From NCBI RefSeq assembly GCF_024502345.1, contig NZ_JALDNN010000001.1: DNA of 64,000 nt; one strand, written 5' to 3'. Origin of the DNA: Escherichia coli (GTDB taxonomy: Bacteria; Pseudomonadota; Gammaproteobacteria; Enterobacterales; Enterobacteriaceae). Below, one piece after another: positions 10,829 to 51,635 of the stretch; the stretch's first letter is position 1, and each line of letters opens with the position of its first letter. The position numbers and the translations under genes are program-made. The notes beneath the pieces were generated by a model, which was not told the DNA's origin, searched no databases, and saw nothing but the letters and a program-made list of their open reading frames with translations.

Positions 10829-11941
10829 ATGACGGATAATCCGAATAAAAAAACATTCTGGGATAAAGTCCATCTCGATCCCACAATGCTGCTGATTTTA
10901 CTGGCATTGCTGGTTTACAGCGCCCTGGTTATCTGGAGCGCCAGCGGTCAGGATATTGGCATGATGGAGCGTAAAATCGGCCAAATCGCGATGGGTCTGG
11001 TCATCATGGTGGTGATGGCGCAAATTCCTCCACGCGTTTATGAAGGCTGGGCCCCCTATCTCTATATCATCTGTATTATTTTGCTGGTGGCGGTAGATGC
11101 TTTCGGTGCCATCTCTAAAGGCGCTCAACGCTGGCTGGACCTCGGTATTGTTCGTTTTCAGCCGTCGGAAATTGCCAAAATAGCCGTACCACTGATGGTT
11201 GCGCGCTTTATCAACCGCGACGTTTGCCCGCCATCGTTGAAGAACACTGGCATCGCGCTGGTGCTGATATTTATGCCCACGCTGCTGGTGGCTGCACAGC
11301 CTGACCTGGGAACATCAATCCTCGTTGCGCTTTCCGGTCTGTTTGTACTGTTCCTCTCTGGCCTTAGCTGGCGTCTGATTGGCGTCGCAGTAGTGCTGGT
11401 AGCGGCGTTCATTCCGATTCTGTGGTTCTTCCTGATGCATGATTACCAGCGCCAGCGCGTAATGATGCTCCTGGACCCGGAATCAGACCCACTCGGCGCG
11501 GGCTATCACATTATTCAGTCTAAAATTGCTATTGGCTCCGGCGGATTACGCGGCAAAGGCTGGCTGCACGGCACTCAGTCACAGCTTGAATTTCTCCCCG
11601 AACGCCATACCGACTTTATCTTCGCGGTACTGGCGGAAGAGCTGGGATTAGTGGGCATTTTGATTCTGCTCGCTCTCTACATTCTGCTGATCATGCGCGG
11701 GCTGTGGATAGCCGCCAGAGCGCAAACCACCTTTGGTCGCGTAATGGCTGGCGGCTTAATGCTGATATTATTCGTTTATGTCTTCGTAAATATTGGTATG
11801 GTAAGCGGTATTCTGCCGGTTGTAGGGGTTCCGCTCCCACTGGTCAGTTATGGAGGATCGGCGCTAATTGTGCTGATGGCTGGGTTCGGGATTGTAATGT
11901 CAATCCACACCCACAGGAAAATGTTGTCGAAAAGCGTGTAA
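10829..11941 (+). CDS. mrdB: SEDS peptidoglycan polymerase RodA
   Basis: 370-aa polytopic membrane protein immediately downstream of mrdA. Confidence 0.97.
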
Positions 11942-11951
11942 GAGGTGCGCA

Positions 11952-13040
11952 ATGCGTAAGCAGTGGCTCGGGATCTGCATCGCGGCAGGAATGCTCGCGG
12001 CATGTACAAGCGATGATGGTCAGCAACAGACGGTAAGTGTACCGCAGCCTGCGGTATGTAACGGCCCCATAGTTGAAATTAGCGGGGCGGACCCGCGTTT
12101 CGAACCACTGAACGCGACGGCAAATCAGGATTACCAGCGCGACGGTAAAAGCTACAAAATCGTGCAGGATCCGTCTCGATTTAGCCAGGCGGGACTGGCG
12201 GCAATCTATGATGCCGAACCAGGCAGTAACCTGACGGCCTCTGGCGAAGCTTTCGATCCGACACAGCTGACGGCGGCCCATCCAACGCTTCCGATCCCCA
12301 GCTACGCCAGAATCACTAACCTGGCTAACGGGCGAATGATCGTGGTGCGCATTAATGATCGCGGCCCTTACGGCAACGACCGCGTTATTTCGCTTTCTCG
12401 CGCGGCAGCTGACCGTCTTAACACGTCAAACAACACCAAAGTTCGTATCGATCCGATTATTGTCGCCCAGGATGGTTCGCTTTCTGGTCCTGGTATGGCT
12501 TGTACCACAGTCGCCAAACAGACTTACGCCCTGCCTGCACCTCCCGATTTAAGCGGTGGCGCGGGAACAAGTTCAGTGTCTGGCCCGCAGGGTGACATTC
12601 TTCCGGTCAGTAATTCGACGCTAAAAAGCGAAGATCCGACCGGCGCGCCGGTAACCAGCAGCGGTTTCCTCGGCGCACCAACGACCTTAGCGCCAGGTGT
12701 ACTGGAAGGCAGCGAACCGACGCCTGCGCCACAGCCCGTTGTTACAGCTCCGTCGACAACGCCTGCAACCTCGCCTGCAATGGTGACACCGCAAGCCGCC
12801 TCGCAAAGCGCCAGCGGCAACTTTATGGTGCAGGTCGGGGCCGTTAGCGATCAGGCTCGTGCGCAACAGTACCAACAGCAACTGGGACAGAAGTTCGGCG
12901 TCCCCGGTCGCGTAACTCAAAATGGCGCAGTCTGGCGGATCCAACTTGGCCCATTCGCCAGCAAAGCCGAAGCCAGTACCTTGCAGCAACGTTTGCAAAC
13001 CGAAGCCCAATTACAGTCATTTATTACCACCGCGCAGTAG
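11952..13040 (+). CDS. rlpA: septal ring lytic transglycosylase/lipoprotein RlpA (SPOR domain)
   Basis: 362 aa; lipobox LAAC; Pro/Thr/Ser-rich linker; C-terminal SPOR-like region. Confidence 0.93.
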   Translation: MRKQWLGICIAAGMLAACTSDDGQQQTVSVPQPAVCNGPIVEISGADPRFEPLNATANQDYQRDGKSYKIVQDPSRFSQAGLAAIYDAEPGSNLTASGEAFDPTQLTAAHPTLPIPSYARITNLANGRMIVVRINDRGPYGNDRVISLSRAAADRLNTSNNTKVRIDPIIVAQDGSLSGPGMACTTVAKQTYALPAPPDLSGGAGTSSVSGPQGDILPVSNSTLKSEDPTGAPVTSSGFLGAPTTLAPGVLEGSEPTPAPQPVVTAPSTTPATSPAMVTPQAASQSASGNFMVQVGAVSDQARAQQYQQQLGQKFGVPGRVTQNGAVWRIQLGPFASKAEASTLQQRLQTEAQLQSFITTAQ

Positions 13041-13179
13041 CGTAAAGCAGGCATCTGATGTGTCAATTTCTGTAAATGACGTTAACAAAGTCACGCGGAA
13101 AGTCAGATGCCTGCCGGTAGTGCATTTGCTATAGTAGGGCACTTTTTTTAATTCCATCACGGATGTCGTAGTTCAGACC

Positions 13180-14391
13180 ATGAATACCATTTTTTCCGCT
13201 CGTATCATGAAGCGCCTGGCGCTCACCACGGCTCTTTGCACAGCCTTTATCTCTGCTGCACATGCCGATGACCTGAATATCAAAACTATGATCCCGGGTG
13301 TACCGCAGATCGATGCGGAGTCCTACATCCTGATTGACTATAACTCCGGCAAAGTGCTCGCCGAACAGAACGCAGATGTCCGCCGCGATCCTGCCAGCCT
13401 GACCAAAATGATGACCAGTTACGTTATCGGCCAGGCAATGAAAGCCGGTAAATTTAAAGAAACTGATTTAGTCACTATCGGCAACGACGCATGGGCCACC
13501 GGTAACCCGGTGTTTAAAGGTTCTTCGCTGATGTTCCTCAAACCGGGCATGCAGGTTCCGGTTTCTCAGCTGATCCGCGGTATTAACCTGCAATCGGGTA
13601 ACGATGCTTGTGTCGCCATGGCTGATTTTGCCGCTGGTAGCCAGGACGCTTTTGTTGGCTTGATGAACAGCTACGTTAACGCCCTGGGCCTGAAAAACAC
13701 CCACTTCCAGACGGTACATGGTCTGGATGCTGATGGTCAGTACAGCTCCGCGCGAGATATGGCGCTGATCGGCCAGGCATTGATCCGTGACGTACCGAAT
13801 GAATACTCGATCTATAAAGAAAAAGAATTTACGTTTAACGGTATTCGCCAGCTGAACCGTAACGGCCTGTTATGGGATAACAGCCTGAATGTCGACGGCA
13901 TCAAAACCGGACACACTGACAAAGCGGGTTACAACCTTGTTGCTTCTGCGACTGAAGGCCAGATGCGCTTGATTTCTGCGGTGATGGGCGGACGTACTTT
14001 TAAAGGCCGTGAAGCCGAAAGTAAAAAACTGCTAACCTGGGGCTTCCGTTTCTTCGAAACCGTTAACCCACTGAAAGTAGGTAAAGAGTTCGCCTCTGAA
14101 CCGGTTTGGTTTGGTGATTCTGATCGCGCTTCGTTAGGGGTTGATAAAGACGTGTACCTGACCATTCCGCGTGGTCGCATGAAAGATCTGAAAGCCAGCT
14201 ATGTGCTGAACAGCAGTGAATTGCATGCGCCGCTGCAAAAGAATCAGGTCGTCGGAACTATCAACTTCCAGCTTGATGGCAAAACGATCGAGCAACGCCC
14301 GCTGGTTGTGTTGCAAGAAATCCCGGAAGGTAACTTCTTCGGCAAAATCATTGATTACATTAAATTAATGTTCCATCACTGGTTTGGTTAA
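13180..14391 (+). CDS. dacA: D-alanyl-D-alanine carboxypeptidase PBP5
   Basis: 403 aa; signal peptide; SLTK active-site and KTG motifs. Confidence 0.96.
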
Positions 14392-17923: not shown

Positions 17924-17955
17924 TAAAAAACCCGCTTTTTGAAGCGGGTTTTTTG
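17924..17955. terminator. bidirectional intrinsic terminator between lipA and tatE
   Basis: aaaaaacccgctt-tttg-aagcgggtttttt; A-run and T-run on both sides. Confidence 0.7.
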
Positions 17956-50024: not shown

Positions 50025-51635
50025 TCAGGCTGATGCGCGTAACGCCAGCCACTGACGTAATTGTTTTTTATCGACTTTCCCGACCGCCGTCAGCGGAAGT
50101 GAATCCACACACTCCACGCGATCCGGTAATTTAAATTCGGCAATACCCTGTTCACGCAGGAAACGACGCACCTGCACCGCGCGCAGCGGCTCTTTTACCA
50201 CCAGATAAGCACAGCTTTTTTCGCCCATCAGCTCATCTTCCATGCTCACCAGTGCGGCATAGATCACCGCCGGATGGCGCAGCAGCAGGTTTTCGATCTC
50301 TTCGGCAGCGATCTTCTCGCCGCCACGGTTGATCTGATCTTTCTCGCGCCCCTGCACGGTGATGTAACCCTCTGGATCAATAGAGATCAGATCGCCGGAA
50401 CAGTAAAAACCGTTGGCATCAAAGGCACTGGCATTGTGCTGCGGACTTTTGTAATAACCGCGGAAGGTGTACGGCCCGCGCGTCATCAGGCGTCCAACTT
50501 CCCCTTGCGGCAGTGGATTTCCTTCAGCATCAGCAACCCATACTTCATCGTCCGGACACATTGGGTAACCCTGGGTATGGATAATTTTCTCCGCGCTATC
50601 ATCAAGTCGGGTGTAGTTCACCAGCCCTTCCGCCATGCCAAACACCTGCTGCAACAGGCAGCCAATCTCAGCGGGAATACGCGCCGCAAGGGTGGCTGAA
50701 AGACGTGCGCCGCCGACCTGTAACAGTTTCAGCGAGGCAAGCTGCGCCCGGCTTTCACCTTCGGTCAGCGCCTGCAACCACAGGCTGACTGCCGGTGGCA
50801 CCAGCGCGGTGACGTTCACCTGATGTTTTTCAATCAATGGGAAGCAAAGCGTGGCGCTGGGATCGGCCGCCAGAACAACCGTTCCTCCGGCAAGAAAGAC
50901 GCCCAGCGATCCCGGCGAACTCATGGCGTAGTTATGAGCCGCCGGGATCGCGCACAGGTAGCGTGTCTGTTGTGTGAACTGACAAATCTCGACGCTACGA
51001 CGCACGCTGTAGTAGTAGTCGTTATGAGTGCGCGGGATCAGTTTCGGTGTGCCGGTGGTGCCGCCGGAAAGCTGGAAATAGGCCACTTCATCAGCAGGTG
51101 ATGGCGTGGCAGTAAAATCCTCAGCCGGATGGTTAATCGCATCCTGCAAGTTATGCTCACCGCTGTCGTTGTGCAGTTGCACCACGCGAATGGAGGAATG
51201 TTCTGTGACGAAAGTATTGAGGAAATCATCCCCGCTAAACAGCGCATGTTGGCGATCGGCAATCAGCAATGCGGGTTCAATCTGGCTGGCATAGGCGTTC
51301 AGTTCACTACGCTGATGGCTGAACAGCGCCAGCACCGGCGCAACGCCCAGTTTCAGCAGCGCGAAAAAGGTAATATACAATTCAGCGACGTTACCCAGTT
51401 GTACCAGCGCGGTTTCACCAGGTTTAATGCCCTGACGGCGTAAACTACACGCGAGGTTATCCGCCGCCTGATTCAGCTCCCGGTAACTCAACTGTCGCTC
51501 GCCGTCGATAACCGCGATGCTGTCACTCGCAGCGTGGCGAGTCAGAATGTCGGTCAGCGGCAAATCCTGCCAGTAGCCTTTTTCCCGATAGCGACGGGCA
51601 AACTCTTCCGGCCAGCGGGTGAATGGAATGCTCAT
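50025..51635 (-). CDS. entE: 2,3-dihydroxybenzoate-AMP ligase
   Basis: 536-aa adenylate-forming enzyme (SGGTTGTPK motif). Confidence 0.96.

Follow-up and report, generated by a model that had tools for sequence, protein, structure and literature searches.

Among the systems described so far, the exonuclease-blocking 3' stem-loops of selective RNA processing and stabilisation (REP hairpins between cistrons, e.g., malE-malF) consist of a stable hairpin placed behind the stop codon of a gene whose downstream neighbour has the same direction. At steady state such messages end a few nucleotides beyond the stem, and transcripts reading through into the next gene are found as well. In intrinsic terminators the transcription unit closes with a GC-rich stem, and the 3' end resides 7-9 nt after the stem and within a U tract. 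In his-type pauses ~10-12 nt separate the base of the hairpin from the RNA 3' end, with G at position -10 and a pyrimidine at position -1, and in overlapping terminator-promoter junctions the same nucleotides end one transcription unit and start the next. Each of these systems has features in common with a hairpin that is encoded between the genes rlpA and dacA of Escherichia coli, and a literature search found no paper describing this rlpA-dacA hairpin. Within this work the hairpin was found to be a conserved RNA structure, which, in the reading that we favour, caps the message ending with rlpA.

The locus was analysed within a window, meaning the whole 64-kb stretch of E. coli DNA that was available. 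It belongs to a cluster of genes on the + strand, whereby rlpA closes the rsfS-rlmH-mrdA-mrdB-rlpA transcription unit and dacA, which encodes PBP5, is followed by ybeD and lipB as next genes of the open reading frame (ORF) list (Table 1). The spacer between rlpA and dacA comprises ~139 nt in the window and equals that of K-12 MG1655, save for a tract of seven T in the window versus six T in K-12. Alignment of both spacers allowed for the transfer of coordinates, with a window position x corresponding to K-12 position 677142 - x upstream of the T tract and to 677143 - x downstream of it. When the 401 bases around the spacer were compared with complete E. coli genomes, matches of at least 95% identity were obtained in 5424 of 5426 genomes, each of them located under rlpA and dacA. 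Neither in K-12 nor in the other records listed is any feature annotated within the spacer.

Table 1. Positions of genes, RNA structures, promoter elements and RNA ends at the rlpA-dacA junction.
Feature	Position in the window (K-12 position)	Strand	Basis and remarks
mrdA	8925-10826	+	ORF list; cell-shape cluster of E. coli
mrdB	10829-11941	+	ORF list; cell-shape cluster
rlpA ORF	11952-13040	+	ORF list; RefSeq annotation of matching E. coli records
rlpA stop codon TAG	13038-13040	+	ORF list; RefSeq annotation
Weak antisense RNA 3' end	13041 (664101)	-	Term-seq, 1166-1788 reads
Hairpin 1, whole	13047-13114	+	RNA fold and pair counts
Hairpin 1, 5' arm GCAGGCAUCUGA	13047-13058	+	Repeat search, fold, covariation; the arm that follows changes of the 3' arm
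Hairpin 1, 3' arm UCAGAUGCCUGC	13103-13114	+	More conserved arm; overlaps the putative dacA -35 region
Hairpin 1, basal helix, 12-13 bp		+	Fold; the 13th pair is an extra U-G pair
Hairpin 1, inner helix, 7 bp	13067-13073/13095-13101	+	Fold
Hairpin 1, apical helix, 4 bp	13077-13080/13090-13093	+	Fold; not conserved
Putative dacA -35 hexamer ATGCCT	13107-13112	+	Deduced from the distances to the mapped start and to the -10 element
Hairpin 2 and T7	13119-13143 and 13143-13149	+	Fold; overlaps the -10 element and the beginning of the dacA transcript (start and first bases)
Abundant RNA 3' ends	13124, 13125 (664018, 664017)	+	Term-seq, coordinate mapping
Extended -10 element of the dacA promoter, TGcTATAGT	13127-13135	+	Nearly invariant across Enterobacterales
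dacA transcription start A (transcript begins ACU)	13141 (664001)	+	SMRT-Cappable-seq; SEnd-seq re-analysis
dacA (PBP5) coding sequence	13180-14391	+	ORF list; RefSeq annotation

An earlier note on this DNA had described a 12-bp inverted repeat between both genes, and this repeat proved to be real, with the letters given for its arms being correct. As identified by the repeat search, the arms GCAGGCATCTGA (13047-13058) and TCAGATGCCTGC (13103-13114) are 12 nt long each, complementary at 12 of 12 positions and separated by 44 nt. The placement given before, i.e., arms near 13049 and 13107 enclosing a loop of ~46 nt, pointed to the right site and was off by 2-4 nt, as the arms begin at 13047 and 13103. 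What had to be given up is the view that the repeat lies immediately before the ribosome-binding region of dacA: 65 nt separate the 3' arm from the ATG at 13180, and these harbour the core promoter of dacA, the start of its transcript and a leader of 39 nt. Perfect inverted repeats of at least 12 bp with a loop of up to 60 nt were identified at four distinct loci of the window, and first-order Markov simulations yielded a chance expectation of 0.385 (mean) per 64-kb window and of ~0.0008 per 139-nt spacer. A third copy of the arm 12-mer was not found in the 64-kb window with one mismatch allowed. The other perfect repeats of at least 12 bp locate to 17925-17954 (loop 4-6 nt), 50906-50951 (loop 22 nt) and 59617-59653 (loop 9-13 nt), and are probably terminators.

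A calculation of the folding energy, which had been named as a check in the earlier note, bears out the structure hereafter referred to as hairpin 1: the + strand between 13044 and 13126 folds with a dG of -32.4 kcal/mol (z -5.46), whereby 0 of 200 shuffles folded as well. The fold of the whole spacer amounts to -44.5 on the + strand (z -4.3) versus -33.6 on the opposite strand. Like the stem of an intrinsic terminator, hairpin 1 is a stable and GC-rich stem-loop. The hairpin region is present as a single copy and at the same site in 5424 of 5426 E. coli genomes, and sensitive blastn searches with the 139-nt spacer returned a median of one site per genome of E. coli, flanked by rlpA and dacA in every case. 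Membership in a family of dispersed repeats (REP/BIME, ERIC, MITE) was considered and rejected, because the element is single-copy. A comparison with Rfam at a permissive threshold gave chance matches only, the best overlap being MIR477 with 16.4 bits versus a gathering threshold of 65 (E 6.3).

The conservation of the hairpin was followed with one genome per species, which resulted in 80 Enterobacterales loci possessing a DacA relative. In 79 of the 80 loci the RlpA C-terminal motif ends the ORF directly upstream of dacA, and the one exception is Edwardsiella ictaluri, where the ORF before dacA is without this motif. The spacer measures 135-145 nt in 43 of the 46 aligned Enterobacteriaceae loci and up to 153 nt in the remainder. 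Folding each spacer revealed the same hairpin design nearly throughout the Enterobacteriaceae and in Erwinia, whereby the 3' arm of the basal helix coincides with a G/A-R-T-G-Y-C motif and the 5' arm locates just past the rlpA stop. The arms are lineage-specific and still complementary to each other (GGUAUCCGA/UCGGAUGCC, GGCACCUGA/UCAGGUGCC, CUGGCACCAG/CUGGUGCCAG and CCCGACUUUGCG/CGCAAAGUCGGG), and also the arms of Erwinia differ yet match (CCGGCAUCC/GGAUGCCGG).

For the analysis of covariation, 47 distinct Enterobacteriaceae sequences were aligned with MAFFT. RNAalifold recovered only 6 pairs from this alignment because the 5' arms are out of register with one another, and therefore the basal helix, comprising 16 pairs, was supplied by hand and compared with slid and shuffled controls. 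Of the cells of the basal helix 78.5% are paired, as compared to 33-41% when the partners were slid by 1-3 columns, and double changes were counted in 52 cells versus 14-27 in the slid controls, with 0 of 500 shuffles reaching 52. These counts are not to be taken as probabilities because the sequences are related, but the slid controls keep this relatedness and are still far lower. One of the basal pairs is split between U-A (21) and C-G (20) among the 47 sequences. When the pairs were counted helix by helix, 83% were obtained for the basal helix; the inner helix was found to be 77% paired, including one C-G/G-C swap (10 versus 9), and the apical helix is paired to 51% across the alignment, meaning that it is not conserved. 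The sequence of the hairpin interior is more conserved than a simple cap would require. Within the spacer, conservation is highest in TTTGCTATAGTAAGGCACTTTTTTTAA, which contains the extended -10 element of the dacA promoter.

In the longer spacers of more distant genera, folding identified a separate GC-rich hairpin after the rlpA stop, and as a consequence it is suggested that the rlpA-dacA junction needs a 3' hairpin signal of this kind. In five loci from Rahnella, Hafnia and relatives, a GC-rich hairpin with a T-rich tail (e.g., GCGGGGCTGCGGCCCCGTTTTTAT) locates to the first 40 nt past the rlpA stop, and a different, short hairpin (AAGUCAG/CUGACUU) was found around the dacA -35 region of this group. 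The consensus scanner, whose tail rule is strict, called no + strand terminator in the longer spacers of Rahnella, Hafnia, Yersinia and Serratia.

The changes within the helix also reveal the strand on which it is kept. Wobble pairs that are usable only in + strand RNA (G-U) were counted 51 times, versus 15 A-C combinations which could pair only when the opposite strand is transcribed. Two U-G pairs within the inner helix are almost invariant, and the + strand fold is the more stable one in 55 of 77 distinct loci. As compensatory changes and + strand G-U pairs keep the helix, and as G-U pairs are mismatches in DNA, the element is read as RNA, and the repeat hence is a selected RNA structure of + strand transcripts running from rlpA to dacA. 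An exception was observed for the three loci of the Cedecea group, where the - strand fold of the hairpin region is better by 12.6 kcal/mol.

The Term-seq data published for K-12, a further check that had been proposed, document an RNA 3' end of high abundance at a distance of 10-11 nt from the base of hairpin 1, whereby the RNA ends with ...GCCUGCCGGUAGUGCA(U). In two of the growth-condition tables of Adams et al. (2021), 91,306 reads are given for 664018 and 41,794 reads for 664017, and these tables contain similar read counts for the ybeD terminator (PMC7815308). The end was classed as 'orphan' because it locates more than 50 nt past rlpA, it is absent from the list of Rho termination regions, and supplementary file 3 tabulates 664017 as a candidate 5'-UTR event ('upstream ORF, -54, dacA') (PMC7815308). 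The 664018 entry of the first table is missing from the corresponding sheet of this file (PMC7815308). Since the dacA transcription start resides 16 nt downstream of the 3' end, the latter derives from transcripts begun upstream, and it belongs to the rlpA transcript and not to the dacA 5' UTR. Among the entries listed in PMC10667835, 664017/664018 is not found as an RNase-dependent end. Transcription does proceed beyond this position, as SMRT-Cappable-seq revealed a read-through rlpA-dacA-ybeD transcript with its start at 665332 (PMC6131387), and within the SEnd-seq re-analysis rsfS to lipB is treated as one complex operon (PMC10667835).

The suggestion that the hairpin acts as a weak terminator of rlpA was thus retained in part. 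It resides in the rlpA 3' UTR and an RNA 3' end is close by, but the 9 nt following its stem (CGGUAGUGC) contain two U and no U tract, the end lies too far from the stem, and the consensus scanner called no + strand terminator between 12500 and 13700. Because a U tract is lacking and the end is found at 10-11 rather than 7-9 nt, hairpin 1 is not a canonical terminator. A stable stem near the 3' end of the message with a steady-state end shortly past the stem, as found here, is one of the characteristics of a stabiliser hairpin.

Also the opposite strand was considered. Read on the - strand (GCCUGCUUUACG), the same hairpin is followed after 6 nt by the weak 3' end of an antisense RNA. On this strand a perfect TTGACA is present from 13066 to 13061 with TACGCT 16 nt further (within 13039-13066), and going by these motifs both could form an antisense promoter. 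An older in vitro study described the CFT073 ORF c0723 as transcribed 'upstream of dacA, opposite direction' (PMC3141248). In the stretches of SMRT-Cappable-seq and SEnd-seq data that were searched, neither an antisense start nor a 5' end was found at the hairpin base.

The start of dacA was placed at the same nucleotide by two independent maps, whereby SMRT-Cappable-seq identified dacA transcripts running from 664001 to 662669 (PMC6131387) and Table S1 of the SEnd-seq re-analysis gives 664001 as dacA start with ACU as first bases (PMC10667835). This start lies 27 nt downstream of hairpin 1 and 6 nt past the -10 element, with hairpin 1 spanning -94 to -27 relative to it. Judged from this geometry, the -35 hexamer of dacA is probably ATGCCT, which resides within the 3' arm of hairpin 1, 17 nt before the -10 element, and matches TTGACA at 3 of 6 positions. 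In ~68 of 81 sequences, including those of Serratia, Yersinia, Erwinia and Pantoea, a G/A-R-T-G-Y-C motif is situated exactly 21 nt before TGnTATAGT. The consensus scanner called no promoter in the spacer, and it misses the dacA promoter because the -35 hexamer matches the consensus at these three positions only; the promoter assignment therefore rests on the mapped starts and on conservation. That the 3' arm is conserved and the 5' arm adapts would follow from the 3' arm being the -35 region of the promoter.

Further conserved elements were observed up- and downstream of the start. Inside the hairpin, a nearly invariant palindrome of 17 bp (TGTnA-N7-TnACA; here TGTAAATGACGTTAACA) occupies 13071-13087, and its centre at 13079 corresponds to -62 from the dacA start. 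The fourth positions of the palindrome are not complementary, for which reason it looks more like a putative protein site on DNA than like an RNA helix. A CRP site in the hairpin interior was considered and rejected, the spacing of the half-sites being 7 and not 6. Within the dacA leader, a strongly conserved block (CATCACGGATGTCGT) comprises 13156-13179. No Shine-Dalgarno motif is present within 5-10 nt of the dacA ATG at 13180, and the conserved block contains a tiny upstream frame (ATG TCG TAG, 13163-13171), which in other genera consists of ATG, 3 or 4 codons and TGA, with the stop 2 nt before the dacA ATG. This upstream frame suggests translational coupling or re-initiation.

Next to hairpin 1, a second hairpin with a weaker stem begins 5 nt further downstream. 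In many genera the promoter spacer carries TATAGC, the perfect complement of GCTATA of the -10 region, and in E. coli GUGC pairs with GCAC instead. When compared with shuffles of the promoter spacer over all loci, hairpin 2 was found to be not consistently more stable (median p 0.30), and the idea of hairpin 2 as a selected structure was dropped as unsupported overall; its stem is not conserved as one structure. Hairpin 2 together with T7 was not called by the consensus scanner, and on the basis of its letters it is a weak candidate for an intrinsic-terminator-like element of rlpA. For the final T of the tract (K-12 663994) a 3' end is recorded, with the lowest count bin and an FDR of 0.04 (PMC10667835), and given this count bin it is treated as a hint only, and an indirect one, of exonuclease trimming. 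Judged by the order of the sheets in this source, the entry most likely represents an end that is enriched in an exonuclease mutant, i.e., delta-pnp. Counted from the dacA start, the T7 tract itself (T6 in K-12) spans +3 to +9, and it is conserved throughout Enterobacterales. It could provide rlpA with a terminator tail, dacA with a slippage-prone start region, or both. A genome-wide study of reiterative initiation published in 2025 does not mention dacA in its main text (PMC12709180).

Considering the mapped ends and the conservation of the helix, we favour, with moderate confidence, the reading that hairpin 1 is a stable 3' cap or stabiliser of the mrd-rlpA message, whereby the 3' end would be formed by weak downstream termination or by cleavage, each followed by trimming. 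Polymerase coming from rlpA would transcribe through the spacer, and some of the transcripts would stop at hairpin 2 and the T tract or beyond, while others continue into dacA. As an alternative to termination, the RNA may be cut within the AU-rich sequence GCAUUUGC, which resembles the preference of RNase E for cutting before UU. Subsequently, 3'-to-5' exonucleases would strip the unprotected tail, the weak hairpin 2 included, until they stall ~10 nt short of hairpin 1, a distance of the order known for RNase II and PNPase. This would yield the abundant end at 13124/13125 and leave the upstream message protected. Counted against this reading are the absence of 664017/664018 from the RNase-dependent ends among the entries listed in PMC10667835, the silence of the consensus scanner on a + strand terminator and on a promoter, the stability of hairpin 2, which hardly exceeds that of its shuffles, the reversed strand preference of the Cedecea group and the high sequence conservation of the hairpin interior. 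The 3' arm would be pinned by its promoter function, and the 5' arm would evolve to keep complementarity; as the ~139-nt spacer must also house the dacA promoter, the 3' arm would have been built from its -35 region.

Over and above this, other reaction schemes were weighed. In one of them, hairpin 1 would act directly as a terminator of non-canonical type or as a hairpin-stabilised pause, with polymerase halting or releasing 10-11 nt past the stem and hence within the promoter spacer. The mapped 3' end sits at this distance from the stem base, which is also the spacing between hairpin and 3' end in his-type pauses, G at -10 (G13116) and U at -1 (U13125) fit the elemental pause consensus, and no Rho termination region is reported at the site. 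However, CGGUAGUGC with its two U implies a hybrid that is not weak, position +1 is U and the consensus G is absent, total-RNA Term-seq reports stable released ends and not paused nascent RNA, read-through transcripts exist and the scanner calls no terminator, so that we consider this scheme rather unlikely. Less credit still is given to a cis-regulatory leader structure of dacA, acting as attenuator or translation control element; a dacA leader structure had been named in the earlier note as the alternative to a terminator. The hairpin indeed locates upstream of dacA, its 3' end was listed under dacA in the Term-seq report (PMC7815308) and read-through transcripts include it. Yet in both data sets dacA transcription starts 27 nt downstream of the hairpin, which therefore lies outside the main dacA leader, with only read-through transcripts carrying it upstream of dacA; the 3' end precedes this start, so it does not come from the dacA promoter; and inspection by eye saw no conserved pairing between hairpin and translation start. 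All this renders the leader structure very improbable.

If a separate, stable RNA were cut from the rlpA 3' UTR, to act in trans or as a protein-binding decoy, this would fit the great abundance of the 3' end, which closes an operon of weak expression, as well as the conservation of interior blocks such as UGUAAA and UUAACAAAGUCA beyond the needs of pairing. The latter is explained equally well by promoter-upstream elements acting at the DNA level, and a 5' end or start was found neither in K-12 664050-664109, among the entries of one re-analysed SEnd-seq set, nor in 664070-664129 by SMRT-Cappable-seq. In addition, the mapped 3' end is without a U tail for Hfq, as would be expected of an Hfq-type 3'UTR sRNA, and neither an Rfam family nor a publication matches, which makes such an RNA improbable. 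Comparably doubtful is the idea that the hairpin couples transcription of the elongasome operon (mrdA, mrdB, rlpA) to the firing of the PBP5 promoter, or that it persists as a functional ~80-nt RNA; folding of the hairpin is completed with the rlpA-derived polymerase at about -17 of the dacA promoter, and the 3' arm would be the -35 region of the latter. Finally, the symmetry could be one of DNA, i.e., a protein-binding palindrome or a cruciform, or a chance by-product of the promoter sequence, given that the 3' arm coincides with promoter sequence and that the palindrome of the interior is conserved. Against this, the arms lie 56 bp apart from centre to centre, which is abnormal for an operator, pairing is kept via G-U wobbles that are mismatched in DNA and on the other strand, and the chance expectation per spacer is far below one; we regard this as the least probable of all schemes considered.

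With hairpin 1 as a 3' cap, the mrd-rlpA unit of cell elongation gains a defined and conserved 3' end. The dacA (PBP5) promoter becomes precisely placed, with its extended -10 element, a weak putative -35 element and the start A13141, and the 'orphan' Term-seq end is reassigned from a possible dacA 5'-UTR event to the upstream gene. The same DNA would serve as RNA 3' arm for rlpA and as -35 region for dacA, whereby the free arm tracks the constrained one. Mutations of the dacA -35 region would also break the rlpA hairpin, and promoter studies carried out there therefore need a control for this. That one arm is probably common to the -35 region of the next gene is a tidy solution and unsurprising in a junction of 139 nt.

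Comparison with the systems described at the outset reveals highest similarity to the exonuclease-blocking 3' stem-loops, with which hairpin 1 shares its position (behind a stop codon, both neighbouring genes having the same direction), an RNA 3' end that at steady state is found shortly past the stem, and the read-through into the next gene. The rlpA hairpin differs from the REP hairpins in being single-copy and unrelated in sequence, and from this class as a whole in that its 3' arm is common to the promoter of the next gene; moreover, its stabilising effect is a predicted one. With intrinsic terminators the locus has the GC-rich stem at the end of the transcription unit in common, as well as a second hairpin with T7 that follows 5 nt later, whereas hairpin 1 is without a U tract, encloses an interior of 44 nt and is followed by an end at 10-11 nt instead of 7-9 nt within a U run. 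The distance between hairpin base and 3' end, G at -10 and the pyrimidine at -1 are those of his-type pauses, but a G at +1 is missing, the hairpin does not reside in a leader region, and its end is known from released RNA. As in overlapping terminator-promoter junctions, the same nucleotides take part in ending one unit and starting the next, and here this sharing is documented by covariation, with the free arm tracking the promoter-constrained arm.
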